A DNA stretch of 64,000 nt, taken from the IMG/VR virus record IMGVR_UViG_3300029258_004006; one strand, given 5' to 3'. Source of the DNA: a virus. A program made the translations under genes and the position numbers. Shown here in pieces: positions 9,204 to 63,765 of the stretch; position 1 is the stretch's first letter, and each line of letters opens with the position of its first letter. The notes beneath the pieces were generated by a model. That model was given only the letters and a program-made list of their open reading frames with translations, made no database searches and was not told the origin of the DNA.

Positions 9204-9544
9204 GCTAGGGCTTCACGACAGGCCTCATTATGATGTTTAATTTCAAAATCTTGAACCACCATATCTTGAGGTGGCTTAAATCTCCCGATGGTTTCAACAC
9301 CATTATAGACCCCAAAGATCATCGTGACTATTTCATTCGCAAATTCTGTAGCTGATCGAAGGCCTTCGCCATGGAAAACTTCCATGTAGAAAGTCTTATC
9401 AACACCATCATGTGTTTTGGAAGCGGTCACATTGATGAAGGAGGAATCCACTTCTCTTTGGAGCCTGTATCCCCGACTCTTAAGGAGTTGTGAAACATCC
9501 CTTAGGAAAGTCCCAGCAAACTGGGTAACGATTTGAAGACTCAT
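9182..9544 (-). CDS. hypothetical protein
   Basis: 120-aa ORF with a 4-nt overlap onto the HNH gene end. Confidence 0.5.
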   Translation of the reverse strand: MSLQIVTQFAGTFLRDVSQLLKSRGYRLQREVDSSFINVTASKTHDGVDKTFYMEVFHGEGLRSATEFANEIVTMIFGVYNGVETIGRFKPPQDMVVQDFEIKHHNEACREALAWFKQYA

Positions 9545-9969
9545 AATTTTCTTCCAATTTGAAGGTTAGCCTGTCGATCTAGGATAGCCTGGATAAACCG
9601 AACATAGCTGGTTTCTCCAGCCGCCCTGGATTGTTCCTTCAACTTGAGGATTGTTCCAGGAGATAGGTTCAAACGAACTTGTTTCGTCTCGACCTCATCT
9701 GGTTCAATTATCTTATCAGCGATCGTCCGGGCCAAACTGAAACACAGTTGATATTTGGGTGATCCTGGCATCCATTTGGTACTGACCAGGGAAGAAGCGG
9801 CTCCAGAATTGCTGATCAATTTTAAAGCCACGGCATGAATCAACCGATGACAATTGGGGCAAATATCGGTTAGATTGTGTTGCTCATCGGATCCCCCAAA
9901 AGCCTGGGGGATCTTGTGATGTTCTTCACCAACCGGACAAAGTTCGGTACAGAGACCGCACCGAATCAT
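9541..9969 (-). CDS. HNH endonuclease
   Basis: HHKIPQAFGGSDEQHNLTDICPNCHRLIH with flanking Cys pairs. ATG 9969 overlaps the upstream TGA (TGATG), so I shortened the track ORF. Confidence 0.75.
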   Translation of the reverse strand: MIRCGLCTELCPVGEEHHKIPQAFGGSDEQHNLTDICPNCHRLIHAVALKLISNSGAASSLVSTKWMPGSPKYQLCFSLARTIADKIIEPDEVETKQVRLNLSPGTILKLKEQSRAAGETSYVRFIQAILDRQANLQIGRKL

Positions 9970-10226
9970 CAGACGATAACTAGTTGACGCGACAGGATGG
10001 CGTCTTTTAGTTTCTTGTTGCCTTTGAGGACACCGCCTGGGGCTTTCTTGCACAAATCTACAGATTGACCGGATTGAATTATGATCCGGGTCTTCTTAAA
10101 TTCACCACCTTTTTTATGGTCAATGAACTCAACCGGGATAGAAATCTCACCAGCTACGGTACTACGAACGGTGCAAGCACCAGCGTTCAACTTCTCAACT
10201 AATTTGCCAAACATTGAAGTTGCCAA
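9969..10226 (-). CDS. hypothetical protein
   Basis: 85-aa ORF between the tape measure and HNH genes. Confidence 0.5.
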   Translation of the reverse strand: MATSMFGKLVEKLNAGACTVRSTVAGEISIPVEFIDHKKGGEFKKTRIIIQSGQSVDLCKKAPGGVLKGNKKLKDAILSRQLVIV

Positions 10227-31306: not shown

Positions 31307-31858
31307 TTAGTCGTCTTTTTCCAGCAGCGCTTTCAAAGCCGCTGCAACAGGACGATATCGTTTACTATACTGCTTGATCTTGGCCTTGTTACGCTTGCGG
31401 CGTAATTTAGCCAAACGGTAAGCTTTGGGATCAGTGCGCTTCAGCCCACCACGAGCCGCAGTGCGCTTACGCTTTCTGGCGGCGGCTGCTTTTGCTTTGG
31501 CAGAACGTCGTTTGACGCTCTCCAGACCACTCAGCCAGGTAGCGACTTCCTGAGCGTCGTCTTCGCTACCATCGCTCAGAACATCCAGTACATCGGTAAG
31601 GCTGTAATTACTTTCCAATTCATCATCACCAGGACTGTCCTGATCATCACCACTGGTAAGATACTCGATGAGATCATCCATCATCTCTTCGTCAGCCATA
31701 TCGTCGTCGTCGTCTTCATCACTGGTCTCTTCTTCATCACGGTTCAGAAGATCCTTGATGTCTTCCTCGTCTAGACCCTCGATGAGTTCATTAACCTCAT
31801 CCGATGAATCATCCAGATCCAGATCGCCGAGAAGTTCCTGCAACATTTCCATATCCAT
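31307..31858 (-). CDS. hypothetical protein, hyper-acidic N-terminal two-thirds and poly-basic C-terminus
   Basis: Contains DEEETSDEDDDDDMADEEMMDD... and then KRRSAKAKAAAARKRKRTAARGGLKR...KLRRKRNKAKIKQYSKRYR. Scaffold or internal-protein position. Confidence 0.6.
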   Translation of the reverse strand: MDMEMLQELLGDLDLDDSSDEVNELIEGLDEEDIKDLLNRDEEETSDEDDDDDMADEEMMDDLIEYLTSGDDQDSPGDDELESNYSLTDVLDVLSDGSEDDAQEVATWLSGLESVKRRSAKAKAAAARKRKRTAARGGLKRTDPKAYRLAKLRRKRNKAKIKQYSKRYRPVAAALKALLEKDD

Positions 31859-31867
31859 GGTTATCTC

Positions 31868-32545
31868 CTATTCATCGTCTTCGTCGTCTTCGTCCTCTGC
31901 GTTGAGGAGATTTTGAAGAATCTCAAAGTCCTCTTCCGCAGAGTCATCATCCGACAAAGCAGCTATTAGGTCGTCTTCAACGGCTTCTAAGGCAATGGAT
32001 TGACTGTTTTCAACAATTACCTTAACTAAGGATTCTTCTCCATCGGCTGAAAGAACACTAGCAATAATGTAACCATCACCCGTAGCCGAATCCAAATTGA
32101 TGAAGTGAGGATCAACTGATTCAGTTAGATTGTCTGGGTTCTTTTCGTCCCAACTTGTCGAAATTAAACCAGCGATAAGGGGGTCTTCTTCAGAATGAGT
32201 CTCAAGATCCTCGGAAATACCAAGATCTTCATTAAACTTGAGACTAATTTCCTCGATTTGAGCAGTAATCGTTCCAACCTTGGTGAGTAGTTGCTCTAGT
32301 TGTTTAAAAGGAACCGCTTCAATTGCATTGGCGGCTCTACAAAGAGCACCAGCTTCAAGCTGAATGTCTTCGCTTTCCTTATCATCATTATCTAGAGTAT
32401 CCCTAGCGGCCGTTAGGAAGGCGGCTATCGGATTCAAGGCTTCGGATTGCAACTCCTGTACCGCTTTGATAGAGCTTTTTACAACTTTATCGAGGCTGAG
32501 AAGAAGGTCCAACTTTGGTGCAACTCGTTTCATATCGTCGTTCAT
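31868..32545 (-). CDS. hypothetical acidic protein (scaffold-like position)
   Basis: 225 aa ending NAEDEDDEDDE. Confidence 0.6.
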   Translation of the reverse strand: MNDDMKRVAPKLDLLLSLDKVVKSSIKAVQELQSEALNPIAAFLTAARDTLDNDDKESEDIQLEAGALCRAANAIEAVPFKQLEQLLTKVGTITAQIEEISLKFNEDLGISEDLETHSEEDPLIAGLISTSWDEKNPDNLTESVDPHFINLDSATGDGYIIASVLSADGEESLVKVIVENSQSIALEAVEDDLIAALSDDDSAEEDFEILQNLLNAEDEDDEDDE

Positions 32546-35255: not shown

Positions 35256-35585
35256 TTATGGTCTGGATTCATCAATTGCCTTTTGTTCTACCACTTGCGG
35301 ACCTTTGTTGACTAGACGAATGCAACACTTTTTAAATTTCTTTCCGCTACCACAGGGACACGGGCGATTACGCAAACAATTCTTAACCTGTCTTATCTCG
35401 GTTACATCTTTATTCTGACAAGCCTTGTCATATGCTTTCTGTAAACGAGGCTTTAAAGCCCCCTCGTCTTCTTCCCCTATAAACTCTCTCGTTACCCTTT
35501 TGGCTTCTGTTATATTTCCGGCGACTTCACTTTCAGAGGTGGTACCGCCCGGACTGGTTCTGTCAACGCTGGTTTCTTCATGCAT
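35256..35585 (-). CDS. SEC-C motif (zinc-binding) small protein
   Basis: CPCGSGKKFKKCC near the C-terminus. Start is ATG 35585 or upstream 35630. Either choice overlaps the 3' end of the DpdA-like ORF out of frame. Confidence 0.6.
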   Translation of the reverse strand: MHEETSVDRTSPGGTTSESEVAGNITEAKRVTREFIGEEDEGALKPRLQKAYDKACQNKDVTEIRQVKNCLRNRPCPCGSGKKFKKCCIRLVNKGPQVVEQKAIDESRP

Positions 35586-37378
35586 TTTTGTTGTTCCTTT
35601 ATTCGTTGTTTTTCTGCTTGTTTTAACCAAATTTTCTTGGCTTTTTGCTGCAGAGTCTTCTGTACCTTGGCATTCCCTTTTCCTCTACCGGTTCGTCCCC
35701 TCTTTTTCTCCACTTCTCTTTTAGAGAATTTGTGTTTAGTGGATAATTTACCAGTTGCAGTGGCCCGCAAATCCTGGATGTATGCCAAATAGCCCTTGTT
35801 ATTTTTAACCTCTTTCCACCAATTTTGGACTAACGGAGGAAACTGACCTAAAACTGCCGGGTCATCCATATTCATATAGAGAGGCATCAATTCTAAATTA
35901 CTTCCCTCCCTAACCCCCGTCATCACTGGGTCTCCATCTTCATCCATTAAGTCCCGATCTTCACTAAACACGATATCAGGTTTTAAACTAGACTTCTTTC
36001 GAGTTTCAGCGTAATACAAACTACGAAATTCCTGAAAACCCGCATCCACCCCATATTCGATGGTGTGTTCTACATAAGCCACTAATTTGGCTGAACTAGT
36101 CCCGAAAGTCTTTTTGACCCATTGATAATAATCTTCATAATCACTTTTTTTGGCCGTCTCATGAAGTAAGTTAGTGAAATTATTTAATGCCCAGATGTTA
36201 TGAATAGCTAAATACGGACCAATTTTAGTATTCTCGCTCCAGAAGGGGTCCATAAATCCAAGAGAGGAACAAACAGGACAAGCACATGTGGTTGGCAACC
36301 GACCCATGTGAGCAAAATCATTCAGCGGAACTCCGTGGTTGTTTTTCTTGGTTTTTCCGTCTAGATGAAATTCAGTTCCAATCCGATCCGTTGAAATATA
36401 TCCAGAGGGGTGTTGGATGAGTATTTTACGGTGACCTACCCCTAGAAACTGACTGCTGGAATCGCAAGTAACCCGAATTTCCATTCGTTTAGCGAACCAC
36501 GCCATAGCAGGCATAATCTTGATTCCCGATACTCCCAGGACATGGACCCATTTGGCCTCTCTTTCTGTTGCTACCAAAAGGGCTCCTCTTAGGGCGGAAG
36601 CAAAATCTTGAGAATCCCCAGAACCTGCACTAGCCCACCCAAAGAATTGTGGGCGATCAACCACATCAATCCATCGCCTTTGATCATCTGGGGTACAACT
36701 ATGCACGATGTTAAAGACCTTTAGATCAGGTCTCATGTTAGCAGTGTAACAATCAGCGAATTGCGATTGTAAATGAGAGAGGGTAGAAAAAATATCTTTT
36801 TGTCCAAAATCAGTTCCCTCTCGGGGAGGCGCGTCCAAAATCAAAGCATAGTCAGAGGTTTGGTTTTGCCATTCAATAACTGCCTTCGGATCAAGATAAT
36901 CAACTGTTCTAACTCGAAGTTGATACCCTCCGGAATCCGTCATATGCACCAGGCCTGATGTCTTAGCCCAGTTGGTTCTCTGGTTTTTTCTAATTCCATA
37001 TGCAGCAGAACTAAGAATGATCCCGACTTGCCTGTTAATAGATCCTTCTTCACAGAAAGGGTCTAATTCATGAACTACGTCAAAATCCCGTGGGTCAAAC
37101 GGAGCCATGGAAGGGTAAGAAACAGAACTCCGACCAAAATTGTTTAAGAACACGGTGCGATCGGGAAGATCGTATATTTGAATTTGGTTGTTTAGTTTAT
37201 GATAACCCACTCCGAACCGAGAAACATGATCTATTTGTTTCTTAAACCGTACTCCAATAGACGGGTGAAAGGAAACTTCCGCTCCAGCCATGATCCAAGT
37301 AAGTCCACCCGGATCGGCGTCAGTGCCAAAAGTCCCTAGGATTTCGTCTCGTCGAGAAGTCAAAATTACTGCCTGCAT
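35510..37378 (-). CDS. dpdA: TGT-family transglycosylase, DpdA-like (7-deazaguanine DNA insertion)
   Basis: MTDSGGYQ (compare TGT DSGGFQ) and ILDAPP. Zinc site CACPVC plus His in AIHNIW about 25 aa later. About 150 aa of Lys-rich C-terminal extension. Phage context with queC and queF. Confidence 0.8.
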   Translation of the reverse strand: MQAVILTSRRDEILGTFGTDADPGGLTWIMAGAEVSFHPSIGVRFKKQIDHVSRFGVGYHKLNNQIQIYDLPDRTVFLNNFGRSSVSYPSMAPFDPRDFDVVHELDPFCEEGSINRQVGIILSSAAYGIRKNQRTNWAKTSGLVHMTDSGGYQLRVRTVDYLDPKAVIEWQNQTSDYALILDAPPREGTDFGQKDIFSTLSHLQSQFADCYTANMRPDLKVFNIVHSCTPDDQRRWIDVVDRPQFFGWASAGSGDSQDFASALRGALLVATEREAKWVHVLGVSGIKIMPAMAWFAKRMEIRVTCDSSSQFLGVGHRKILIQHPSGYISTDRIGTEFHLDGKTKKNNHGVPLNDFAHMGRLPTTCACPVCSSLGFMDPFWSENTKIGPYLAIHNIWALNNFTNLLHETAKKSDYEDYYQWVKKTFGTSSAKLVAYVEHTIEYGVDAGFQEFRSLYYAETRKKSSLKPDIVFSEDRDLMDEDGDPVMTGVREGSNLELMPLYMNMDDPAVLGQFPPLVQNWWKEVKNNKGYLAYIQDLRATATGKLSTKHKFSKREVEKKRGRTGRGKGNAKVQKTLQQKAKKIWLKQAEKQRIKEQQKCMKKPALTEPVRAVPPLKVKSPEI

Positions 37379-37389
37379 TGGTTCTTGCT

Positions 37390-38001
37390 TCAGCGACCAG
37401 AGTTAACCAGATCAATTCTAGATGATCCGGCCAGAGCACCGGTCTCCACAAGCGTAAATTCCCGAGCGGCCCTCGGTATACAAAGATTGTGTGCCGCATT
37501 ACCATCGCGATCCAAGACCGCGTGGCAATTGGGGCACGTCCATTTCCTCATACATAACGATAAAGAATCAACTTTAAACCCACAGTGATGACAAATCTTA
37601 CTGGAGGGGTAAAACCGATCCCGAACTACGAGAGATGATCCAGAGGCTTCGCATTTGTAAATTAATTGCCTGCGGAATTCACTCCAAGAGGCATCACTGA
37701 TATGGCGGGCTAGAGCGTGGTTTTTGATCATGCCGGCCACGTTTAGGTCCTCGATGCAAATCTCTTGGAACATGTTGGACAACTGAGTAATCAGTTTGTG
37801 CAGGAAGTCTTGGCGGTGATTGGTGATTCGCCAGTGATGACGAGCCAGTGTCGCTGCTGATTTCCTTCTGTTGTTAGAACCTTTTTGTTTACGGCTATGA
37901 CGGCGAGACAACTTACGAAGTTTAGTCAAACCCTTGCCTAAAGCTTTGATGGGTTTCTTCTTGATGAACCTCCGAAAAGATGGGGTCGGAAAGTCTCTCG
38001 T
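37390..38001 (-). pseudogene. tnpB: 5'-truncated tnpB remnant (IS200/IS605-type RNA-guided nuclease)
   Basis: Frame is open 38001-37393. Motifs present: KLRKLSRRHSRKQKGSNNRRK, RuvC-II ICIEDLNVAGM, zinc ribbon CHHCG...CPNC, and RuvC-III DRDGNAAHNL. The N-terminal half, including the RuvC-I Asp, is missing. Only a TTG start is available, and there is no room for a right end or omega RNA. Confidence 0.7.
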
Positions 38002-38040: not shown

Positions 38041-39303
38041 TTACGCAACCACGCCTTGGCACATTACTGATTTGATTGGATTCCAGTCAGCCCCAACATC
38101 CGTCAGGTAGTACACTCCCGCTCCTTCAATCTTTGTTGTACATTCATACAAATTTTTAACGGATTCAGGGATGTCCTGACCAAAAGCTGTTACAAGGCAA
38201 ATATCTTCGGAGGCTTCGGATGCCAAGAAATGGCCGTTTTTTGTTATCCCGGCGGTATTGGAAATTGCCCATTTATTTGTATCTTGGGGTGGAGTGCTCA
38301 CTAAATATTGTAAGGCTGGGATACCATTTTTGATCAAAACCGAAGCAAAATACTTCGAGCGAACCGGGAATTCCTTCATGCCCTCCCATAACCCAAAGAG
38401 CAATTCAGTATAACTAAAAGCGCAAGCCGCCACCTGGGCTTCAGTAGGATGTGGCATACGGGTAGTGTATTCTAAGAAATACATTTCCCCATCCGGAGTA
38501 ACCATACAGTTGATATCGAAAAACCCTACGTGTCCTCTTATTTTGACCTCATGTGCTCGCATGAGATCGCCAATCGGAAAGGACAGTTGATCCAATTCCG
38601 TCCAGGTCATAAATTGACCACAAGATCCTGATTCCCCAGTCATCTCAGTGGACCTGATCTGTTTAGGGTACCGTCGCTTGTATTCTTGAATCATGGTAAA
38701 AGGTTGTAGGAATTTGCCCTCTGCCCCCATGAACCCACCGAATCCAACTTCTTCACCTTCTATAAACTCTTGGTATACGGCACCCTGAAAATTAGTGGTC
38801 TTCAAAAACAAATCGCGTTTGTACAGCACCATTGTTCGGATAGAATTGCCCGGAAATCGTTGCTTAACCACATACTGATTTTCATCGAACTTAACCACTA
38901 CTTTATCACCAGGAAACATTTGTGCTTTATCTGGATCAGTAGTCGTCCGAGGAATTTTTATCCAGGGAGCCAACTTTTTGATAAACATAGCAGCAAACCC
39001 ACGATCTAGTTCTAGTCTAGCACCAAGATCAACTGCTCGAATTTGCTGAGCTTCCCCCAGATTTGAAAAATGGTCTACGTAAAAAATCAAATCCGAAGGT
39101 CGGGAAATCTCTTTTACGCCCTCCCCCAACTGCCGCCAAGTCGAATACCACCGGATAGACATTCCAGGAGGTAAAACTTTTTCTTCGTCTGGGGGTTCGG
39201 GGGCCACTACATGAAAAAACACCTCCACCGTGTCTTTAATCAAAGCAATAGCCAAAGCAAAGGGACACCAGTCCCCCACGAAATGAACTCTCCGAGTAGT
39301 CAT
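38041..39303 (-). CDS. PurD-like ATP-grasp amide ligase (divergent)
   Basis: By-eye alignment to E. coli PurD from memory. LELDRGFAAMFI~LEGSKAFTKDFL. QEFIEGEEVGF~EEFLDGEEASF. IQEYKR~SQDHKR. GFFDINCMVTPDGEMYFLEYTTRMPHPTEAQ~[30 protein letters not shown]. The N-terminal GNGGREHA is replaced by GDWCPFA. Confidence 0.7.
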   Translation of the reverse strand: MTTRRVHFVGDWCPFALAIALIKDTVEVFFHVVAPEPPDEEKVLPPGMSIRWYSTWRQLGEGVKEISRPSDLIFYVDHFSNLGEAQQIRAVDLGARLELDRGFAAMFIKKLAPWIKIPRTTTDPDKAQMFPGDKVVVKFDENQYVVKQRFPGNSIRTMVLYKRDLFLKTTNFQGAVYQEFIEGEEVGFGGFMGAEGKFLQPFTMIQEYKRRYPKQIRSTEMTGESGSCGQFMTWTELDQLSFPIGDLMRAHEVKIRGHVGFFDINCMVTPDGEMYFLEYTTRMPHPTEAQVAACAFSYTELLFGLWEGMKEFPVRSKYFASVLIKNGIPALQYLVSTPPQDTNKWAISNTAGITKNGHFLASEASEDICLVTAFGQDIPESVKNLYECTTKIEGAGVYYLTDVGADWNPIKSVMCQGVVA

Positions 39304-40034
39304 ACCAATTCCTTTGGTTTAACATCATACTCAGTTGAATCCTGGCCTTCAGCAGTCATAAAAGCCCAGTGCCTACCTCGACAAGCAAAACAACCACCAC
39401 AATGATCTGATTTGCTATTTTGAAAACAAGACACCGTCGTTTCCAATGGAGCCCCCAATGCTCTACCCAAACGAACAACTGCGGCTTTGTCTAGCCCAGC
39501 TAACGCATCGATCATTCCAAAATGGACTGCTGTTCCAGGGTGATTTTCGTGATAAGGTGTAAAATCGTTGTACAAAGAGCCGATTTCTCCACGGAATTCA
39601 CTAGAATCCATAGTATCAAACACACCCCCAAGAAATTCATTCGTAAAATCTTTAGTGGCCGGGTCATTCATTCCAGAACCCCCAGTATCAGCATCCATCT
39701 CGCCAGTGTATACTTTTTCCACACCTATCTTTTCAGCCATCGCCAAAGCAAGGGAGTATTGAAATAACTTGAACCCAGGAATGTAATTACTTCCTGGAAT
39801 TTGCAACTTGTCCAAAACATCCCGCATATCCACACGAGTCAATTTAAGACCAAGAAGACATGCAATTCTATTCTGCGATTCAACGACCTTTTCTTGTCCC
39901 CATAAATTCAGCGATAACAATAGGGGGTAGGCCCCGGCTTTCTGGAGCATAGCAGCTACCACAGTGGAATCCAAACCGCCGCTAAAAAGTACCAGAGATT
40001 TGTAAACTTGCGTATGTGTATGCGTGTGGGTCAA
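39300..40034 (-). CDS. divergent QueC-like PP-loop ATPase (second paralogue)
   Basis: PP-loop LVLFSGGLDSTV and C-terminal Cys cluster HCGGCFACRGR, as in QueC. The core QueC motifs YGQ(K/R)H, VPNRN and YPDCR are degenerate. TTG start overlaps the upstream TGA (TTGA). Confidence 0.65.
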   Translation of the reverse strand: MTHTHTHTQVYKSLVLFSGGLDSTVVAAMLQKAGAYPLLLSLNLWGQEKVVESQNRIACLLGLKLTRVDMRDVLDKLQIPGSNYIPGFKLFQYSLALAMAEKIGVEKVYTGEMDADTGGSGMNDPATKDFTNEFLGGVFDTMDSSEFRGEIGSLYNDFTPYHENHPGTAVHFGMIDALAGLDKAAVVRLGRALGAPLETTVSCFQNSKSDHCGGCFACRGRHWAFMTAEGQDSTEYDVKPKELV

Positions 40035-40750
40035 ACGAGAGCCTCCGGAGTATCTTTACTCTTCTTAACCATAGCGATGAAATGCAAACAGCATTCTATT
40101 TGATTACGGGGAAACCCCAAGTGTTCAACACAATACCGAATTACTTGATCGGAATCTAAAGATTTAGTGTGCGTCCCAGCGCGACCCATGATGGTAAGTT
40201 TACCTCCACGAGTACCAGCCACCAACTGCTCCATGGATTCCTTCACAAGTCTCCTGGTGAAAATAAACCGGGAAGTGATGTGTTCTTGGGTTAGACAATA
40301 GGCCAGTTGTTTTCCATACACTTCAGCATCAAAAGAATCGGCGTGAAATTTGTACAGGGTTTGGGGTGTAGTCGCAACACCCTGACGAATAACAGCACCA
40401 TTGCATAGGGAAGCCCTCCCCGGAATAGAATAATCTTGTTCGACGCCCCAAAGATCAAAAGCAAGGAACATAAAAGAGGGGTCGATAATCCAGCGGTGGT
40501 CCACCAGCAAAATTGAGTGGGTCAATTGCCCCTTCACTTCCACAACTACTAGTTGGCCTTGTCCCAACAGTTGTTGTGCCTGTCGGGCTAAGTGAAAGCA
40601 GTTTCCTGATTTGGCCCCGTAGGCCAAATCTTTTTGAGGATAATCCGGGGTGCCTCTTCCCTTGGCAAGAGCCGTGATCTTAGAGATGGTCTCAAATAAC
40701 CAGGTTTGAGGATTCAGTTTTTCTACGGCCTGTTGCAAAAAAGAAGTCAT
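40031..40750 (-). CDS. hypothetical protein with possible Cys-His-Asp (transglutaminase/papain-like) arrangement
   Basis: SGNCFHLA, then THSILLVDHRWIIDPS. Weak by-eye hint only. Confidence 0.55.
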   Translation of the reverse strand: MTSFLQQAVEKLNPQTWLFETISKITALAKGRGTPDYPQKDLAYGAKSGNCFHLARQAQQLLGQGQLVVVEVKGQLTHSILLVDHRWIIDPSFMFLAFDLWGVEQDYSIPGRASLCNGAVIRQGVATTPQTLYKFHADSFDAEVYGKQLAYCLTQEHITSRFIFTRRLVKESMEQLVAGTRGGKLTIMGRAGTHTKSLDSDQVIRYCVEHLGFPRNQIECCLHFIAMVKKSKDTPEALV

Positions 40751-40754
40751 GGTA

Positions 40755-41216
40755 TCACCTCAAATGAGGTTCGAGGGTGGGGAAAGTACCAAATCTATCT
40801 GATGCCCATTGTGCCCACTCCTCACTGTGTCTCTGTGCGAATGGTTGGATGGCTATGCCCCCACGAGAATTAAAACACCCAATTACTTCAACATACTTGG
40901 GGGTCAACAAACTCATCAAATCTTCGACTATGACGTTGACAACTGCTTCGTGGAAAGCTCCATGATTTCTAAAACTGCCCAGGTAAAGCTTCAGAGCTTT
41001 GCTCTCGACTAAACGCTCCTGAGGAACATAATTGATGTAGATCGTACCCCAATCAGGTTGACTGGTGACGGGACAAATACTGGAGAATTCTGAACAGATC
41101 AAGCGAATCCAAAATACCGACTCCCGTGATGGGCTGGGTACATGTTCTAGAAGTTCAGGATTGTACTGTTGAGTCTGGGAACCAAATCCGGAATTACCTG
41201 AGCCTAAATGATTCAT
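40755..41216 (-). CDS. queF: NADPH-dependent 7-cyano-7-deazaguanine (preQ0) reductase, unimodular type
   Basis: QueF motif ESKALKLYL and catalytic Cys context SSICPVTSQPDW. 153 aa. Confidence 0.85.
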   Translation of the reverse strand: MNHLGSGNSGFGSQTQQYNPELLEHVPSPSRESVFWIRLICSEFSSICPVTSQPDWGTIYINYVPQERLVESKALKLYLGSFRNHGAFHEAVVNVIVEDLMSLLTPKYVEVIGCFNSRGGIAIQPFAQRHSEEWAQWASDRFGTFPTLEPHLR

Positions 41217-41568: not shown

Positions 41569-42357
41569 CTAACGATTAGGACACAAAATCAGACCACTGC
41601 GAATCTCCAGTTCTTCCAGCGTAACAGTGTAGTTCTGAAAGTTGGCCTTGCGAGGTGTATCCTGGGGCAAAAGATAAGCTGTCGGAGTTTCCCCTCTGAT
41701 CATCACGATTTTCCAAAAAGCGGAGGGAACACAGTGGGGTTCATCTGCTCCAGGTAATTGAGGCATGCTATCGTCTTCGAATAGTGGGCCGGTGAGAATC
41801 CAGGTTTCCCCATGTTCCCATGTCAGTTCTCGCACGTAGATTTCCAATCCTAGCCAAGTTCCCTGATTGAGACCAGGATACTGAGGTGCGATGTTGCTCA
41901 GATAGTTTACTTGAGAAGCATCTTTGGACCCCCGGAAAGAAGCCAATGGAGCTAGGTGACCCCGATCAAAATCACTGGCTCCCTTGTAGTCGGCTGGTTC
42001 CAAAGTTTCAGCCGGATCCAATAGAGGATCACTTCTCCACACCCGAGCTAAATCCAGTGTTCCTCTTGTTTTACTGGGGGTTAAGTGATAAGCCACCCAG
42101 TCTGCTAGCTTGGTTTCGATGTTAGCACTAAGGGCGTAAGATTCACGCACAACAATGACATTGGTTTCGGGGGTGCCGATTGGACAACCAAAAAGGAAAT
42201 GTTCACATCGAATCTGACCGGTGGGGAAGGGGATGGGAGCAACAGCCATTAAAGGCTTGGGGGTAGAAACGGTGAGCGTCAAGAATGCCCGGATGAGGAT
42301 GATGAGACAAATCGAGCACACAATCCACGTACAAGTCCGACGGGGTTTAGTCGACAT
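41569..42357 (-). CDS. DNA/RNA non-specific endonuclease (Serratia/NucA/EndoG family) with N-terminal membrane anchor or signal
   Basis: DRGHLAP...NIAPQYPGLNQGTW signature. N-terminus MSTKPRRTCTWIVCSICLIILIRAFLTLTV. Start moved to ATG 42357. Confidence 0.85.
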   Translation of the reverse strand: MSTKPRRTCTWIVCSICLIILIRAFLTLTVSTPKPLMAVAPIPFPTGQIRCEHFLFGCPIGTPETNVIVVRESYALSANIETKLADWVAYHLTPSKTRGTLDLARVWRSDPLLDPAETLEPADYKGASDFDRGHLAPLASFRGSKDASQVNYLSNIAPQYPGLNQGTWLGLEIYVRELTWEHGETWILTGPLFEDDSMPQLPGADEPHCVPSAFWKIVMIRGETPTAYLLPQDTPRKANFQNYTVTLEELEIRSGLILCPNR

Positions 42358-42886
42358 GAAGTTTCTCCCAACCGGTTTCTGGATAGTACACGCGATTGCC
42401 ATCAAAAATGTAAATTAGCATATAGTCGTCCCCCAAGTTGCTATTGGTGAAACATCTGTGTCCGCCTTCATAAATCAACAGGTAATTCCCACCGCCAATC
42501 CACATCCAGCTATCAGTCACGAAATTCCACAGATACAGTTCTTTGCTAAACCACGTGTAATAGCTGTATTTCTTGCATTTTTTATAACCCGGCGGTATTA
42601 CATATACTGAATCATCCCTGGTCACTTCTAAAACTGGAGTCGTTTCTATCTTTTGACACTTCCTCATTTTCAGACACTGTTTACAGGTAACGCGCTGCCA
42701 ATGGGGGCTGGTACGACTCTCACTTGCCCAAAACTCCAACCCACATACCGCAAAATCATACGAGCCATAATTAACTACCCTCCCGCCTTGATATCCTCGG
42801 TCTCTACGTTTCCGCTTATGTATAATCTTTCGCTTCTCTAAAGGCTGCGGGCTACTTACCGTCATCTCATTTCCTAACCGGGCCAT
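42347..42886 (-). CDS. hypothetical protein, translationally linked to the nuclease gene
   Basis: 179-aa ORF with a basic N-terminus. Overlaps the nuclease start by 11 nt. Confidence 0.55.
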   Translation of the reverse strand: MARLGNEMTVSSPQPLEKRKIIHKRKRRDRGYQGGRVVNYGSYDFAVCGLEFWASESRTSPHWQRVTCKQCLKMRKCQKIETTPVLEVTRDDSVYVIPPGYKKCKKYSYYTWFSKELYLWNFVTDSWMWIGGGNYLLIYEGGHRCFTNSNLGDDYMLIYIFDGNRVYYPETGWEKLHVD

Positions 42887-43535
42887 AGACGGTAGGATCG
42901 GTTACCTCGGCTAACCGAAATGCCTCTCGTCGTTCCACACAGGTTCCACATTTACCGCAATGAGTGACTTGTCCTTTGTAGCATGACCATGTCTCCCCGA
43001 AGGGCACGTGTAATTCATGACCGAGACGGCATATCCTGGTTTTATCATACCGAAGAAAGGGAGTCCAAATAGGTACCGGATAATAATGACACACATCAGC
43101 GATCTGAGACAAGGCTATCACAAAGGCTGGTCTACAGTCTGGGTAGATGGAGTGATCCCCAGCGTGAGCAGCATAAGCCACGGCGTCATATTTCTCATTG
43201 ATGCAACACCCAATAGCGATCGATAACATGATCATATTACGATTGGGAACTACCGTGGTCTGCATATTCTTGTCAGCATAATGCCCCTCCGGCACCACCG
43301 TTGCTGAATCCATCAAAGCGTTATCGCCCAAGAGTTGACCCACGGAACGTAAGTCTAAGATATGATGGGGACACTTATACTCGATTGCCAAAGCGGCTGC
43401 GGCTTCGATCTCCCGTCGTCCGTGTTTCTGACCGTAATTGAAGGTCAAACACTGACAAGTATGGCCTTGTGCCAATAAACTGGCCAGAAGTACAGTAGAA
43501 TCCATCCCACCGGATAGGGATACAATCACTTTCAC
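42867..43535 (-). CDS. queC: 7-cyano-7-deazaguanine synthase
   Basis: VIVSLSGGMDSTV, NYGQKHGRRE, VVPNRNMIM, HSIYPDCRPAF and SCYKGQVTHCGKCGTCVERREAF. GTG start 43535 overlaps the upstream TGA (GTGA). Confidence 0.85.
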   Translation of the reverse strand: MKVIVSLSGGMDSTVLLASLLAQGHTCQCLTFNYGQKHGRREIEAAAALAIEYKCPHHILDLRSVGQLLGDNALMDSATVVPEGHYADKNMQTTVVPNRNMIMLSIAIGCCINEKYDAVAYAAHAGDHSIYPDCRPAFVIALSQIADVCHYYPVPIWTPFLRYDKTRICRLGHELHVPFGETWSCYKGQVTHCGKCGTCVERREAFRLAEVTDPTVYGPVRK

Positions 43536-44476
43536 TGGGGTGCCTCCGCCAACATCGGAATTTCCGAGGACACGGCTCGAAGAATATCGCGTTTGTATTC
43601 CCCTGCCACATCGGGAGTCCCCAGGGACAAAGATTTGCACTGCTTTTCATAAGCGGTTTGCATCAGAAACAGGATCATCAACGTTATGGGATCAAACTTC
43701 TTAAATCCAGGTAGGGACCATACTTCTACCAGACGTAGTTGGTCCGTCTCCTGGAAATATAAGATCAACCCCAGTGGTTTGCCCTCGAATTCGAGTACCA
43801 GAGCCTCTGCGTGAATTCCGGCCAGAATCAAATAGTCCCAACGTGATTTGTTGGTCGTCGCCCATTTGGTAAGAGGGGTCTCTTTTAGAGGCGAAGTAAG
43901 ATGTTGCAATTCCCCAAACCAAAAATCTGGGGTCTTTGGCTGACTTACCACCTTGGGGCTAAACTTTCGCCAGGTCGTTCGAGTATAACGACAATCAGTA
44001 CCTTTCAAGTGGCTCTCAAAATCAGAAGCGGCAAGAGGTAAAATCAATTCTGTCTGAGTCGGAATCCCCTCCCCATACAGCAGCTTGATCAGAGATTCAA
44101 AATCGGGGCCACTTAAAGCCAGGAGGTTTCTAGTCAAGCCGAGGTTGTTCAAAGGAAAGACTAGCAGTGGAGTGTAGCCATCATCCTTCATCTCTGATAC
44201 ACGAACAATGCCACTCTGCTCCCGTTTAGCAATTAGATGAAGGATACCGGGTGGAACATCCAAATTAATAGGGTTTAGGCCCTGAATTCCCCTCATTAAA
44301 ACATCAGACCATTCTTGGTGGTGTTCAACCAAAAAACACCGGCCATCACGTTCTACTCGTGTACCTAGCTGGGGACGAGGGGGTTTATCCCGTTTAACAA
44401 CCAATCGTTTAGATCGTGTTTTCTTCTTAACGGCTGGTTTTGATGGTAATGACGACGACGTCATGTTATCTCTCAA
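43532..44476 (-). CDS. hypothetical protein, C-terminal third GNAT/FemAB-like (weak)
   Basis: ALVLEFEGKPLGLILYFQETDQLRLVEVWSLPGFKKFDPITLMILFLMQTAYEKQCKSLSLG resembles acyl/aminoacyl-transferase folds. By eye only. Confidence 0.5.
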   Translation of the reverse strand: MRDNMTSSSLPSKPAVKKKTRSKRLVVKRDKPPRPQLGTRVERDGRCFLVEHHQEWSDVLMRGIQGLNPINLDVPPGILHLIAKREQSGIVRVSEMKDDGYTPLLVFPLNNLGLTRNLLALSGPDFESLIKLLYGEGIPTQTELILPLAASDFESHLKGTDCRYTRTTWRKFSPKVVSQPKTPDFWFGELQHLTSPLKETPLTKWATTNKSRWDYLILAGIHAEALVLEFEGKPLGLILYFQETDQLRLVEVWSLPGFKKFDPITLMILFLMQTAYEKQCKSLSLGTPDVAGEYKRDILRAVSSEIPMLAEAPQ

Positions 44477-52026: not shown

Positions 52027-52830
52027 TCACCTCGTACTGGTTGTTCCACTTTTCAGAATACGAAATGGAGGGGTTGTTATGCCCTTTGGATAATACCGCG
52101 AGAGAATAGAATAGAATTGATCTTCATCAGCGTCCCCCTCAATTCTTTCCCCGCCCTTAGAGGTAGTCATTGTGAATGTACCCACATCGGGGTGTTGTAT
52201 CTCGATTATGCCATCGAAGAAAACGATGGTTGTGTTTTCTATGGCCATGTCGGCGATATGAATGGCCAGGGGTACCATATCATCAGGGAAGAGTCCAATG
52301 ATACGGTAGATTCCAAGAGAGAGCGTTTCAATCCCTGAGCCTAGTTGCTTTTCTCCCTGCGGTCCAACCACCTGAGAGTGAGAAGCAAATGCACGGGTAA
52401 ACCGGCGGGAAGGAAAAGTGGTGCCATCCTCTCGAATAGGCTCCACCAGTTTAAAGCTCTCTTCCAACTCGGCATCCGTAATATCTGGCTCGTAAAACCG
52501 GGCTCTGAGTTCTTCACTATCAGTGGAGTAAAGATCATACTGAATCGTCACTTCAGGAATTTCTTGATCAGGTTCAAGTGGAACTCGATCAAGTGTACAA
52601 CGATAAATCTGCACCCCCTTATCGTCGGTGGTTCTTCCAACTGATACACGATAGGTCGGCACCAAGCAATACTCAATTATCTTCTTGAGTAAATGAGCGG
52701 GGTTATCCTCCACCACCCTTGCTTCTGAACGGCTCAGAATCATTCCAGAATCCGTCAACAACCATGGAACTAAAATCATTGCATTTCCTACCCTATAGAG
52801 AGATAAACCCGACAGATTTATACCATTCAA
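52027..52830 (-). CDS. hypothetical protein
   Basis: 267-aa ORF. Confidence 0.6.
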   Translation of the reverse strand: MNGINLSGLSLYRVGNAMILVPWLLTDSGMILSRSEARVVEDNPAHLLKKIIEYCLVPTYRVSVGRTTDDKGVQIYRCTLDRVPLEPDQEIPEVTIQYDLYSTDSEELRARFYEPDITDAELEESFKLVEPIREDGTTFPSRRFTRAFASHSQVVGPQGEKQLGSGIETLSLGIYRIIGLFPDDMVPLAIHIADMAIENTTIVFFDGIIEIQHPDVGTFTMTTSKGGERIEGDADEDQFYSILSRYYPKGITTPPFRILKSGTTSTR

Positions 52831-53812
52831 CAGTAGAGATAACTCCTGCTGAGAGGGGCGTCTTTGGTTGATACCCCAATTGAAGTTTAGCTTTACTAAT
52901 GTCGGCTATGTAATAAGTTACTTCACCACGAAGAGGATCAGTGAACGTAACGACTGGTTCTTTACCAATGGAGAGACTAAGTAAATTCACCAGATCCCAC
53001 AAGGTACTACCCCGCCCATAGGCAAGGTTGAACGTAGCACCAACTACAGTGCCATGTCTTTTATGATTGGCCAGAAGTGCTCGCATTGCTCTGGTCAACC
53101 CATCAATGGCGTCATCGATGTAAGTAAAGTCCAAAGTCTTGTTTTTTCCAAAGACTTCGATTGGTTCTCCCTTACTAATTCTCTTAGCAAAGAGGGGGAT
53201 AACTCGTTCCATTCGTTCTAAGTCATTGTCATATCGACCATAGACGTTACTGAAACGAACGATAACAAAAGGCAGATCGTAACTCTTATGACAAGCATGG
53301 AGCATAGCCTCTCCAGCTAGTTTGGTAGCCGAGTAGGGACTTTCCTGAGCTTGAATATGAGCGTCGTCTTCCCGAACAGACCTCACTTCAAATTCTGGCT
53401 TATTTCCATACACCTCCCGGGAACTAGCAAAGACAACCGGCGTGTTATGACGACGACACGCCTCGGCCACCCGATAAATAGACATGAAATTAGACACTGC
53501 TCTATCAGGATATTCTACTAATTCGTGAACTTTGGCATACGCGGCTAAATGAATCACCACGTCAGCCCATTCCATTAGGGGGCTGAGATCAAAAGAGGAC
53601 TCAGCAATATCGCCTCTGTAAAAATCTTTTACGACAGCGGATTGGGATAAATCCCACCAAGGAAAACTGTTTTTATCGATACCAATAGCCTGGTATTTCT
53701 CCGGACCTTGTTGTTCCAACCACCGAATAAGGTTACTACCAATTTGCCCGCTAGCCCCGGTTATCACTACTTTAGTTGGTTCCACTACATTCACCCTTAA
53801 ATAGCGCCCCAT
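52793..53812 (-). CDS. NAD-dependent sugar-nucleotide epimerase/dehydratase (extended SDR)
   Basis: Rossmann motif VVITGASGQIGSNL and catalytic YSATK. Start set at ATG 53812. Confidence 0.85.
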   Translation of the reverse strand: MGRYLRVNVVEPTKVVITGASGQIGSNLIRWLEQQGPEKYQAIGIDKNSFPWWDLSQSAVVKDFYRGDIAESSFDLSPLMEWADVVIHLAAYAKVHELVEYPDRAVSNFMSIYRVAEACRRHNTPVVFASSREVYGNKPEFEVRSVREDDAHIQAQESPYSATKLAGEAMLHACHKSYDLPFVIVRFSNVYGRYDNDLERMERVIPLFAKRISKGEPIEVFGKNKTLDFTYIDDAIDGLTRAMRALLANHKRHGTVVGATFNLAYGRGSTLWDLVNLLSLSIGKEPVVTFTDPLRGEVTYYIADISKAKLQLGYQPKTPLSAGVISTVEWYKSVGFISL

Positions 53813-54462
53813 TTTTGTAAGCGAACAAACGCATATAAAGCAATGCAACCGGCATCAGCTTCGTGATCCGTTTGGGCTTCAGGAAAGTAATCTCTACTAG
53901 TCATTTCATATTGATTTAGGATCACTGTCTTCCACATAGCGGCTGTGAAGACATCGACAGGTCTTTTAGAAGTGGCTACTATCGCACCAATTAACAGATT
54001 AATTGGTTCAATGTCCCCCGTTGCTTTACCCCGCTTAGAATATCGTTCGATAGCCAATAACTGCGGATTTTGAGCAGTGTGTTTAACACACTTTTTTAAC
54101 TCTTCCTGGACAACCCGAAAACCATCATGACAAATGCTTTTCTTAAATTTTTTAGTGGTCTTTAATAAGCCAGAAGCCAAACTCCGGTATTGGTCACTTT
54201 CGAAATCCGTGACCTCAACCATGTGCCAACCAAAATGTTTAGTACCAGGATCCAATCCCAGAATAATCGTAGGCACCAAAAATTCAACACCTTCCCATAA
54301 ACCGCGAGAAGGTTGTTCAGAAGGGGCTGGAAGGTTTAACTCTGATTGCGACTTCGTTTTCTTCTTTACCTTCCCCATGTTACCTTTCTTTTTGGCGAGT
54401 TTTTTTGCAGTAAGTTTCTTTCTTGGTTTGTCTAATTTGTCCTTCGCACCCTGTGGTGGCAC
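53797..54462 (-). CDS. RuvC-like Holliday junction resolvase with Lys-rich N-terminal extension
   Basis: ILGLDPGTKHFGW (Asp), LLAIERY (Glu) and DHEADAGCIALYA (His/Asp). These parallel the RuvC catalytic motifs. Confidence 0.75.
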   Translation of the reverse strand: MPPQGAKDKLDKPRKKLTAKKLAKKKGNMGKVKKKTKSQSELNLPAPSEQPSRGLWEGVEFLVPTIILGLDPGTKHFGWHMVEVTDFESDQYRSLASGLLKTTKKFKKSICHDGFRVVQEELKKCVKHTAQNPQLLAIERYSKRGKATGDIEPINLLIGAIVATSKRPVDVFTAAMWKTVILNQYEMTSRDYFPEAQTDHEADAGCIALYAFVRLQKWGAI

Positions 54463-61587: not shown

Positions 61588-63765
61588 CTATTGATGCCAT
61601 TTAATGGCTTGCAATACGGCTTCAGATAAATCCTGATCAAAGGTGGGGTTCAAGTCCACCGATTCTCGGACGGTCATATGCATGTTAGTATGACATCGTT
61701 CCATAGCCTCAGCAATCGATTCCACTGACACAACAACTTCGGGAAAGATAATACCATCTTCACGAGTAACCAGTTTGTCCACTTTGATCAACTCCCCATA
61801 CTTGGGGGTGATGAATTCGTTCATAGGAGGATGGTCTGTTGTCACCGTAGGAATACCGGCGAATATAGCTTCAGGTAAACACAGTCCCAAACCATCTAAT
61901 TTAGAGGGGTATACGTGAATAGCACCTAAGTTATATGGAAGCAAAAGGTCATCTTCCGTACTCTCTTCTATCCAGGTGATGGAGGAATCGCGTTCGTTCA
62001 ATACTCGTTGACACTCCAAAGGTAGTTTGTCTCTGCTGGTCTGACACCAAATTCCCAATGTCCATTCGGGGTGTTCCTGGAGCAGTTTATCAAAAGCTAA
62101 GATCAGTTTATCTGTTCCCTTGCGGTAATTGATTCCTAACCAACCAGCATTGTGAACAAAAGTAAACCTCCTATTACGAGTCACACGTTCGAGGGGTGTG
62201 TAATAGCCCTCAAGGCCCTGGGCATCAAACCGCCAGTCCAGTTTGACATAATTGCACAGTCCTTTGATTTGAGCGGAAGCCCATTCAGTGGAGGTCAACA
62301 CCAGATCATAGATGTTGAGAGCGGGCTTCCAATCCTCCTTGAAATAATCCAAGTAGGTCATAACCAAACAGTGGCCACGAAGCACAAACGGCAAGGAGAA
62401 ATCATACTCCTCGTTGAATATGACCACATCGAGGTTGTTTGCTTTCACCCAATTCAACAAATCCGTTGGCTTGATCTGATACTGGGGATAAGACGTAATC
62501 CTGGGATGTGCCCATTTACCTGTGGTTATCGGTGGTTTGTCCTCACCATGCACACCTCCGGTTCTGGCCAAGATGTAGGTTTCAATCTGAGGGTGTCTCT
62601 CCAAAGCGCCCGCCATCATCCTAGCTACATAAGATTGGCCACGTTCAAACCAGATGTTCACAAACCCTACACGATAAGGAGTGTTTCGACGCGATAAAAG
62701 AGGCTTGCGTCTCTTGTATGAGGATACGACACGACCAGCATGAGCTAACTTGGTAATATTAGAACCCATTACCGCAGCTTGAACGATGTTCTCTACTTCA
62801 GCAGGACTCTCCGTAAATATCTTTGGCGGTATCTCCTGCACCTGTAACGCTACGGAGGGTTCTTCTTTTTGAGGAACAGGGAGTTTTTCTTTTCCTAGTG
62901 CGATCCTCTTTATGATGGAGAGGAATTGTTTGCACTTATTGGAATACGTATGAGTATCCCAGACTTCCGTCTGCCCAGCAGCCGCAGTTCTAGCGAAATC
63001 AATGGTCTTATTTGAGAGAGCTTCGACTACATCATCGGGAGAATGAACTACCACATGAGAAGGTAATTGTGATGCGGAGAGGGGTTCGGTCAGTAAACAA
63101 GCACCACAACCCGTAACTTCAAAAACACGAGTCTCGGTGTTGATTCGTTTCGAGCAGTGGATGTTCAAAAAGAACTGACAGTTCTTGATGAATTTGAACA
63201 TCTCATCGCCCTCTGTTCGTCCTCCCTTTTTCCAATTAGCTGGCAGCATAATCTGAAAGTGCTTGCTTATCTGATCGATCCATTCAATCCGACGAGGTGT
63301 GGGGTGCCCAACGAATCCAACCTGAAAGGGTCTCTTTTCCCATTTCGGGCCTTTAACTTCTCGACCAACACTTACACCATAGCTGGGAGCACACACCACA
63401 CGAGGATGGAGGGTTTGCATGTACTCTAAGCAAGAGGGTTCGTGGACAGCAAGAATATCAAAAGCAGCAAGGTTCTGCTGGAGCTGTTTCAGTTTAAGAT
63501 CGGCAAGGTCATCCTCCGATCCATCAGGTAGTAATTCGCTGTACCAATTGATTGTAATACCAGACAGACCCTGAATCCAATTTGGGTTAACTCCATCTCC
63601 CTTAATAAACAACTGTATATCGGCTACTTGGGCCTGTTGTATGTAATCTTTTGACTGGCGAGTGTCAAAAGTATTAACCTCTACACCCAGACTCCGAAAT
63701 CCTTCTGCCATTCCCGCTTCAGTAGACGCCGGATTAGCAAAACTACCGAACATGTTAATTTTCAA
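61588..63765 (-). CDS. two-domain glycosyltransferase (CgeB-like N-domain plus GT-B/GT4-like C-domain)
   Basis: C-terminal YPSKLDGLGLCLPEAIFAGIPTVTTD. N-terminal NTETRVFEVTGCGACLLTE. Confidence 0.75.
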   Translation of the reverse strand: MKINMFGSFANPASTEAGMAEGFRSLGVEVNTFDTRQSKDYIQQAQVADIQLFIKGDGVNPNWIQGLSGITINWYSELLPDGSEDDLADLKLKQLQQNLAAFDILAVHEPSCLEYMQTLHPRVVCAPSYGVSVGREVKGPKWEKRPFQVGFVGHPTPRRIEWIDQISKHFQIMLPANWKKGGRTEGDEMFKFIKNCQFFLNIHCSKRINTETRVFEVTGCGACLLTEPLSASQLPSHVVVHSPDDVVEALSNKTIDFARTAAAGQTEVWDTHTYSNKCKQFLSIIKRIALGKEKLPVPQKEEPSVALQVQEIPPKIFTESPAEVENIVQAAVMGSNITKLAHAGRVVSSYKRRKPLLSRRNTPYRVGFVNIWFERGQSYVARMMAGALERHPQIETYILARTGGVHGEDKPPITTGKWAHPRITSYPQYQIKPTDLLNWVKANNLDVVIFNEEYDFSLPFVLRGHCLVMTYLDYFKEDWKPALNIYDLVLTSTEWASAQIKGLCNYVKLDWRFDAQGLEGYYTPLERVTRNRRFTFVHNAGWLGINYRKGTDKLILAFDKLLQEHPEWTLGIWCQTSRDKLPLECQRVLNERDSSITWIEESTEDDLLLPYNLGAIHVYPSKLDGLGLCLPEAIFAGIPTVTTDHPPMNEFITPKYGELIKVDKLVTREDGIIFPEVVVSVESIAEAMERCHTNMHMTVRESVDLNPTFDQDLSEAVLQAIKWHQ

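Follow-up and report, generated by a model that had tools for sequence, protein, structure and literature searches.

We analysed a 64,000-nucleotide stretch of DNA from a metagenomic jumbo phage (IMG/VR virus record IMGVR_UViG_3300029258_004006; hereafter the window) that carries, on the minus strand at 38041..39303, a gene for a PurD-like ATP-grasp ligase of 420 amino acids among genes of 7-deazaguanine metabolism. Very probably, the product is a functional ATP-grasp ligase other than PurD, dedicated to phage 7-deazaguanine hypermodification. Since the ligase group to which it belongs was found almost only in phage 7-deazaguanine clusters, it probably builds a new, larger decoration on the base. 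A reading of the letters alone (the sequence-only reading) had proposed an amino acid:preQ1 ligase, preQ1 being 7-aminomethyl-7-deazaguanine; comparative genomics strengthened the link to 7-deazaguanines well beyond what the one locus allowed, but did not uphold preQ1 as the acceptor throughout the family.

Relationship of the ligase to PurD

The gene was defined by its open reading frame (ORF), its matches to PurD and an AlphaFold2 (AF2) model of its product. The protein is identical on the contigs on which it is recorded, the longest of 262,650 bp; seven contigs with it were read. Because of this identity, the homologues with 29-35% identity in its tight family and a confident predicted fold, ORF 38041-39303 is judged to be a real gene of the expressed type, not a chance ORF.

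Sequence searches pointed to PurD alone. Against PDB sequences, phmmer returned PurD chains only (2yw2, E=3.2e-5, residues 94-404), and a profile of seven family sequences matched seven PurD structures and nothing else (E=5e-11 to 1e-4). The NCBIfam purD model (TIGR00877) gave E=1.1e-9 and 37.7 bits, with a curated cut-off of 288. Neither PHROGs nor Pfam matched the ligase (no GARS_N, GARS_A or GARS_C at E<=0.01). The AF2 model, built from a 53-sequence alignment, had a predicted local distance difference test score (pLDDT) of 87.4 and a predicted template modelling (TM) score of 0.89. With this model Foldseek found 546 PDB matches at E<=1e-3; the 50 that were listed were without exception ATP-grasp enzymes, PurD first. 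The top 15 were glycinamide ribonucleotide (GAR) synthetase entries (E 8.5e-20 to 1e-16, TM score 0.62-0.66), and biotin carboxylases ranked after them (E about 1e-14). The BFVD viral structure library held no close match. Based on the model and the Foldseek search, the ligase is predicted to have an ATP-grasp fold with N, B, A and C domains, and PurD appears to be its nearest relative by both sequence and fold. The sequence-only reading had aligned the ATP-grasp core with PurD by eye; the PurD-only sequence matches, the Foldseek ranking and an alignment with E. coli PurD bore this out.

In human GARS, the GxGGREHA residues Arg13 and Glu14 bind phosphoribosylamine (PRA) at its phosphate and ribose, glycine is bound by Asp295, Asp217, Glu297 and Arg292, with Asp295 as the general base, and the GLAAGK B-loop is conserved in all GARS (PMC2978367). 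Aquifex PurD binds ATP by K103, K143, E185, E192 and K214 and glycine by D212, R287 and E292 (PMC8880213). The ligase keeps E98, R101, K138, E185, K209, E278, R282 and D402; residues E102, K145, E194, K216, E286, R290 and D418 of E. coli PurD pair with E98, K138, E185, K209, E278, R282 and D402, respectively. Arg292, Lys219 and Glu286 of PurD are likewise kept, together with the ATP lysine and the hinge acids. The ATP-grasp residues K138, E179 to E185, K209, D263 and E278 are present and conserved, and 42 columns, all core ATP-grasp residues among them, are invariant across the seven-member family; E224, H251, D263, Y298 and W407 are among the family-invariant residues.

The substrate sites differ from those of PurD. 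When aligned with E. coli PurD, VIGNGGREHALA corresponds to FVGDWCPFALAI and RFGDPETQ to RMPHPTEAQ, which confirmed the replacements read earlier by eye (GNGGREHA by GDWCPFA, GDPETQ by PHPTEAQ). With GDWCPFAL at the GxGGREHA site, the PRA-binding R13/E14 loop is lost. The GxGGREHA loop is absent from 7/7 family members. A scan of 167 PurD-like proteins, made up of 17 cluster members and the 150 top hits from the exhaustive search described below, found it only in the one canonical PurD. At the glycine site, RMPHPTE stands for RxGDPE and QEYKR for QDHKR, with D295 changed to H, E297 to T and D217 to E; the Asp295 equivalent is His in the ligase and Phe or Tyr in relatives. The GLAAGK B-loop is replaced by FDENQYVVKQRFPGNS, and residues 134-140 form the sole internal segment with pLDDT below 50. 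The sequence-only reading had located the remodelling in the amine-substrate region. The loss of the PRA loop agrees with this, but the residues that bind the amine of glycine are changed too. From this residue-by-residue comparison with PurD, the catalytic machinery looks retained and both substrate sites look rebuilt.

D263 is an invariant extra acid located where PurD has YAG (Gly/Ala) and PurT has its first Mg-ligand acid (E267). Because this PurT position, lost in PurD, is occupied, the comparison suggests that the clade stands beside PurD as a sister lineage and is not recently derived from it. The motif E-[FYW]-T-x-R-x-G-x-P-T, not E-F-N-x-R-x-G-D-P-E of PurD, was present in 139 of the 167 PurD-like proteins and GxGGREH in one, which places the ligase in a clade that is large, unnamed and distinct from PurD.

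When 1.84 billion representative proteins were searched exhaustively with HMMER, seven close representatives of the ligase family emerged (E<=1e-64), followed by a gap to E=7e-24; hits at E<=1e-3 numbered 407 in total. No member of this tight family was found in 185,579 species genomes (GTDB), in IMG/VR or in PHROGs, and JGI metagenomes yielded one locus, from an already known phage. The ligase had no tblastn match among cultured phages (50,697 phage records); two relatives used as queries matched only a single uncultured contig, fragments lacking annotation and, in bacterial sequence misfiled among phage records, canonical PurD. As judged by these searches, the tight family is rare and virus-only. 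The ligase of the window is its most divergent member in the N-domain. One relative is named phosphoribosylamine-glycine ligase by JGI. Domain fusions also occur among the homologues: four (P0023, P0044, P0046 and P0132) are fused to a C-terminal GNAT domain, three (P0047, P0084 and P0147) contain an inserted domain of intein type (LAGLIDADG or Hint), and P0066 (1236 amino acids) is a fusion of portal, ligase and Mu-F domains.

Gene context in the window and in relatives

All on the minus strand, the window genes around the ligase run in the order Acetyltransf_6-like, QueC, a 179-amino-acid protein, endonuclease, a 113-amino-acid protein, QueF, a 239-amino-acid ORFan, QueC-like, ligase, TnpB remnant, DpdA-like and HAD, so that QueC lies upstream of the ligase and the DpdA-like gene downstream. 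From QueF through the ORFan and the QueC-like gene to the ligase, the first junction is a gap of 4 nt and the last two are 4-nt overlaps. At the ligase start, an ATGA overlap (GTATGA) with the stop of the QueC-like gene, already remarked in the sequence-only reading, is preceded by a Shine-Dalgarno-like AAAGGAA; the ligase is predicted to be translationally coupled to the QueC-like gene.

QueC (42867..43640), the synthase of preQ0 (7-cyano-7-deazaguanine), matched PF06508 at E=1.1e-58 and TIGR00364 at 183 bits (cut-off 150). QueF (40755..41216), a unimodular preQ0 reductase, which makes preQ1, matched PF14489 at E=1.5e-32 and TIGR03139 at 139 bits (cut-off 86.9), and its translation contains the catalytic-type motifs CPVT and ESKALKLY. 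The QueC-like paralogue (39300..40034, 244 amino acids) matched Pfam QueC at E=1.6e-21 and scored 53 bits against the TIGR00364 cut-off of 150. It has a PP-loop SGGLDS and a C-terminal Cys cluster, and its nearest match among the loci compared (L numbers) is the second QueC of L004.

In the subclade of the window ligase, que-type genes (QueC, Gat-QueC, TGT/DpdA, FolE or QueF) occurred within 10 kb in 12/14 phage loci, compared with 0/11 in the sister subclade (Fisher p=2e-5, L042 and L043 included, shared ancestry not corrected for). The subclades were split by a rough neighbour-joining tree. By this comparison, the association with que genes is specific to the subclade of the window ligase. 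QueC, Gat-QueC, ArcS2, TGT, FolE or QueF was found at <=10 kb in L001, L004, L007, L011, L012, L014, L021, L022, L035, L042 and L043. A scan of IMG/VR with a mid-tier alignment returned 22 loci, which were screened for que genes by phmmer; such genes were found in L019 (the same phage as L014), L021, L022 (QueC, QueF and FolE) and L035, and none in the distinct sister group L023-L039.

The neighbours of the ligase vary among these loci: Gat-QueC, QueC-like, GT2 and radical SAM genes in L001; ArcS2/DUF5591 and two QueC genes in L004; Gat-QueC and also SAICAR synthase in L007; two ligase paralogues and a Pfam-TGT protein in L011; QueC, Gat-QueC and radical SAM in L012; FolE, DpdA, Gat-QueC and an arginase-family gene in L014. 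L005, L006 and L009 were too short for context to be judged. Clusters of relatives hold 2-3 QueC paralogues. In seven loci with QueC-type genes there is an enzyme that makes a nitrogen nucleophile on C7, namely QueF (preQ1 amine) in the window and L022, or the archaeosine (G+) amidine route, by Gat-QueC in L001, L007, L012 and L014 and by ArcS2 in L004. L021, L035, L042 and L043 have QueC-type genes only within reach. QueF and the ligase co-occur only in the window and L022. Because most of the other loci carry Gat-QueC or ArcS2, preQ1 cannot be the acceptor family-wide. A covariation of the N-terminal loop of the ligase with QueF versus Gat-QueC was looked for and not seen; the QueF-linked L022 retains the N-terminal G-x-Q motif.

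Downstream of the ligase, a 622-amino-acid protein with a K/R-rich tail (35510..37378) is a candidate divergent DNA transglycosylase of the DpdA/TGT type. Its matches are weak but collinear, to TgtA (E=6.8e-4, residues 144-191) and Pfam TGT (E=0.047, residues 361-422). Its motifs DSGG[YF]Q and CxCxxC...H recur in the TGT-annotated protein of L011 as well as in the L014/L019 and L021 homologues, and the protein is homologous to those of L011, L014 and L021 at E about 1e-20. Since the DpdA-like proteins of these loci and the window are homologous, a divergent transglycosylase subfamily appears to travel with the ligase. Further homologues (23-25% identity, E to 1e-25), annotated as hypothetical, were seen in cultured jumbo phages of 200-258 kb: P. 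putida vB_PpuM, Xanthomonas PhiXhv and phage NCTB. One such locus was inspected (L041, Pseudomonas phage vB_PpuM-Lauda, 12226-13596), and no que genes were found nearby.

Genes for amine-directed enzymes also adjoin the ligase. A GNAT gene overlaps the ligase gene in L006, and a Leu/Phe-tRNA protein transferase (PF03588, E=5.6e-32) lies directly upstream of it in L020. Of the four ligase-GNAT fusions, two were looked up, and both lie within QueC clusters. In the window, a protein of 314 amino acids (43532..44476), encoded immediately upstream of QueC, has a weak GNAT/Fem-type match (Acetyltransf_6, PF13480, E=0.032, below cut-off); the public gene call, of 310 amino acids, abuts QueC, and the assignment is weak. 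A faint Acetyltransf_6 match in L007 has a homologue in L004.

The relatives share a recurrent module that consists of a SAM-methyltransferase-like protein X, the ligase, a protein Y of 266-291 amino acids and a Cys-rich CxxCC protein Z (L001 9185-12526; L004 9151-12544; L007 9361-12903; L011 5924-8871; L012 11326-13469). By eye, Z resembles DpdM/YkgJ. A relationship to DpdM was not supported, as Z had no Pfam, PHROG or tblastn match and its hhalign probability with phiSM DpdM (gp53) was 0.25%, in small alignments. The module is absent from the window, which has a pared-down variant: the partners shared there are only QueC, QueC-like, DpdA and, with L022, QueF. By or near the ligase in several relatives there is a family-A DNA polymerase with an N-terminal domain like uracil-DNA glycosylase (L001 1-2896, with an intein; L004 5256-7961; L009 1203-4007; L012 7194-10004). 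A radical-SAM protein of 314-319 amino acids is common to L001 (6097-7041) and L012 (14926-15885; E=1e-91) and is distinct from the QueE-like 211-amino-acid radical SAM protein of L012. In L014, the arginase-family (ureohydrolase) gene (9285-10010) separates Gat-QueC from the ligase and overlaps the start of the latter, which hints at guanidino or amidino chemistry in that phage.

The 239-amino-acid ORFan (40031..40750), in the same operon with overlapping or abutting junctions, had no match in Pfam, PHROG, NCBIfam or PDB and found only itself in 5.8 billion proteins; its GNCFH...H...D pattern recalls, by eye, papain-like thiol enzymes. A DNA/RNA non-specific endonuclease with a hydrophobic N-terminal segment (41569..42405; PF01223, E=9.2e-40) could possibly degrade unmodified DNA and spare modified DNA. 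The TnpB (IS605 OrfB) remnant of 179 amino acids (37390..37929; PF01385 and PF07282) matches OrfB_IS605 only from model position 52 of 120, together with a Cas12f1-like TNB domain, and lacks its N-terminal half. It does not follow the ligase stop directly, as had been stated, but after 111 nt, with 11 nt between it and the DpdA-like gene; it is present in the public contig as well. Rfam and tRNA scans of the window were empty, with no omega-RNA or other Rfam match for the fragment, which is probably a passenger and not part of the pathway. Upstream, in the same strand block, are an NAD-dependent sugar epimerase/dehydratase (52793-53848) and a 725-amino-acid protein with two glycosyltransferase domains (61588-63765). 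Downstream of the cluster, beside probable structural genes, a pair of neighbouring genes (31307-32545) encodes D/E-rich, extremely acidic proteins (183 and 225 amino acids).

Proposed reaction and alternative explanations

We propose that the ligase, a descendant of the PurD lineage, would no longer make GAR and would instead serve the phage 7-deazaguanine DNA-modification pathway. A small carboxylic acid, with an amino acid as the likeliest candidate, would be phosphorylated by ATP, and the retained residues Arg282, Lys209, Glu278 and Asp263 would hold the resulting acyl-phosphate. The acyl group would then be transferred to the C7 side-chain nitrogen of a 7-deazaguanine, in the window the aminomethyl group of preQ1 made by QueC and QueF, and the divergent DpdA-type transglycosylase encoded nearby would bring the N-acyl (aminoacyl)-preQ1 into phage DNA. 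The acceptor could be ligated as the free base, ahead of its insertion, or as dPreQ1 once it is part of the DNA. This specific assignment, an amino acid or small acid activated as acyl-phosphate and joined to the aminomethyl nitrogen of preQ1 as free base or in DNA, is tentative, with a substantial chance of being right. Which two substrates are used we infer from gene context, and the direction in which they are joined, like the choice between free base and DNA, is part of the proposal.

GNATs and Leu/Phe-tRNA protein transferase act on primary amines, so their recurrence beside the ligase fits a product that exposes a free amine, as an aminoacyl group would. Such an amine may then be capped or extended by these partners, and the two ligase paralogues of L011 suggest stepwise extension. 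The direction assumed in the sequence-only reading, amino acid onto amine, thus gains indirect support from the ligase-GNAT fusions, the adjacent GNAT and the Leu/Phe-tRNA transferase, but its polarity is only an inference. With more reserve, we consider it possible that the ligase and its relatives make a hitherto undescribed class of DNA base, amino-acid- or peptide-conjugated 7-deazaguanines (aminoacyl-preQ1 here, perhaps acyl-G+ in relatives), installed by the divergent DpdA subfamily and in some phages modified further by acetylation, extension by tRNA-dependent transferases or methylation.

Several observations weigh against the proposed reaction. A search of the 64-kb window detected no FolE, QueD or QueE, and the partners X, Y, Z and U were found there neither with hidden Markov models nor by hhalign against its unknown ORFs. 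The N-terminal G-x-Q motif common to most of the subclade is missing from the window ligase. The usual third Mg ligand Asn (N288 in PurD) is Thr280 in the ligase and Thr throughout the clade; with this substitution and without a glycine-rich B-loop, the catalytic details would be unusual. Because the residues of PurD that bind the amino group of glycine are changed as well, the acid substrate may not be glycine. The isoelectric point is 5.5 for the ligase and 4.6 to 8.7 across the family, and since there is no consistent basic charge, direct binding of DNA gains no support. Finally, as most relatives co-occur with Gat-QueC or ArcS2, their shared acceptor may be the amidine (G+) or another group, and the window may be a special case.

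The reverse polarity is unlikely but deserves the most attention among the alternatives. The carboxylate of 7-carboxy-7-deazaguanine (CDG), free or in DNA, would be phosphorylated and coupled to an amine such as an amino acid or polyamine; the product would be an N-substituted 7-amido-7-deazaguanine, formed perhaps with the QueC-like paralogue or in parallel to it. No other intermediate of the pathway carries a carboxylate, and CDG is shared by all loci, also where QueF is missing; clusters hold 2-3 QueC paralogues. DpdA can insert CDG into DNA (Cui 2023 Table 2, PMC10516641), and CmoY, a PP-loop amide ligase, does such chemistry on a carboxylated base in phage DNA (PMC12783734). A distal free amine on the product would explain the GNAT partners equally. 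Against this polarity, a genuine QueC, which consumes CDG, is present in every locus, and QueF would be left in the operon without a role. Moreover, the acid site of a PurD-type enzyme is a small pocket by the ATP, and the remodelled N-domain is the nucleophile site (PMC2978367).

Quite improbable is a different target within the same DNA-modification island: a sugar acid of a DNA glycan, a protein or a small metabolite. Glycosyltransferases do occur near ligases (GT2 in L001 and L011, GT2/GT9 in L004, GT1 with PIG-L in L007/L008), L014 has GFO_IDH_MocA, and the window has its epimerase and double glycosyltransferase at 52.8-63.8 kb; the sister subclade lacks que genes, and a distant homologue combines the ligase with portal and Mu-F domains. 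The window ligase, however, is coupled to the QueC-like gene, between QueF and the DpdA-like gene and at least 13 kb from the sugar genes, and of the two subclades only its own shows the que association.

A divergent but genuine PurD that raises the GTP supply for deazaguanine synthesis is very improbable. PurD is the nearest family, SAICAR synthase is found in L007 and one relative carries the JGI label phosphoribosylamine-glycine ligase, but the score is far below the TIGR00877 cut-off (37.7 bits vs 288), none of the R13/E14 loop, the B-loop, D295 and E297 is preserved, the non-PurD E-x-T motif is shared by 139/167 PurD-like proteins, and the operon contains no other purine genes. The sequence-only reading had likewise set aside an auxiliary role in purine synthesis, and every PurD-defining substrate motif tested was indeed missing. 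Hardly credible, too, is a decaying or non-catalytic relic beside an insertion-sequence remnant: the nearby TnpB fragment and the divergent N-domain would suit it, but the intact frame, the invariant columns with their core ATP-grasp residues, the confident predicted fold, the identical sequence on seven contigs read and the translational coupling to the QueC-like gene speak against it.

Comparison with known systems

Within the established field of 7-deazaguanine DNA hypermodification, the ligase stands for a new enzyme family whose product is predicted to be new as well. Phage DNA is known to contain eight 7-deazaguanine derivatives, and to our knowledge methyl and formyl are the only decorations of dPreQ1. 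An ATP-grasp ligase in these clusters predicts a bulkier, amide-linked derivative of amino-acid type and a new enzymatic route. Bases of this kind are important in escaping restriction, CRISPR and DNA-glycosylase defences and could serve as chemical handles on DNA. For enzyme evolution, the family would be a case in which both substrate sites were rewired in a lineage that is sister to a core purine enzyme. The window ligase, its six close relatives and the wider que-linked subclade form a ready test panel, and E. coli already supplies preQ0 and preQ1.

Compared with PurD (EC 6.3.4.13; TIGR00877; PDB 1gso, 2yw2 and 2qk4), the ligase has the same four-domain N-B-A-C ATP-grasp architecture over its full length and would be expected to form an acyl-phosphate and then an amide. 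It differs in identity (15-20%) and in location, a phage deazaguanine operon rather than a purine operon. PurT, PurK and biotin carboxylase have the ATP-grasp core in common with the ligase but rank clearly below PurD in Foldseek (about 1e-14 vs 1e-19), and none was found by sequence search.

As in phage 7-deazaguanine DNA-modification systems described before (Hutinet 2019, Cui 2023), genes for preQ0 and preQ1 synthesis are adjacent; QueC and QueF of the ligase cluster scored above their cut-offs. The two key papers on phage 7-deazaguanines list DpdL, DpdM and DpdN and no ATP-grasp enzyme; in Cui et al. 2023 (PMC10516641) neither an ATP-grasp nor a PurD-like enzyme is mentioned, and our literature search found no paper in which DpdA or 7-deazaguanine is connected in this way to ATP-grasp, PurD or glycine ligase. 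DpdM and DpdN decorate dPreQ1 in phage DNA with methyl and formyl groups, respectively (Cui et al. 2023, PMC10516641). Their place in the pathway is the one proposed for the ligase: encoded in a phage QueC/QueF/DpdA cluster, they further modify preQ1 at its aminomethyl nitrogen. Their folds and cofactors are unlike those of the ligase, DpdM being a Cys-metal protein (YkgJ/DUF3109) and DpdN a formyltransferase, and neither forms an ATP-dependent amide.

A chemical parallel to the proposed reaction is CmoY, which joins glycine to 5-carboxymethylcytosine in an ATP-dependent reaction to give 5-glycylcarboxymethylcytosine in the DNA of Synechococcus phage S-B43 (PMC12783734). Like the proposed ligase, CmoY uses ATP to form an amide bond between an amino acid and a modified base as a step of hypermodification. 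CmoY, however, is an asparagine-synthetase-like PP-loop enzyme that works through an adenylate, whereas the ligase would be an ATP-grasp enzyme working through an acyl-phosphate; in the CmoY reaction the base, a cytosine rather than a 7-deazaguanine, provides the carboxylate and glycine the amine. With this precedent, both the proposed acylation of preQ1 and the coupling of CDG to an amine are chemically credible.

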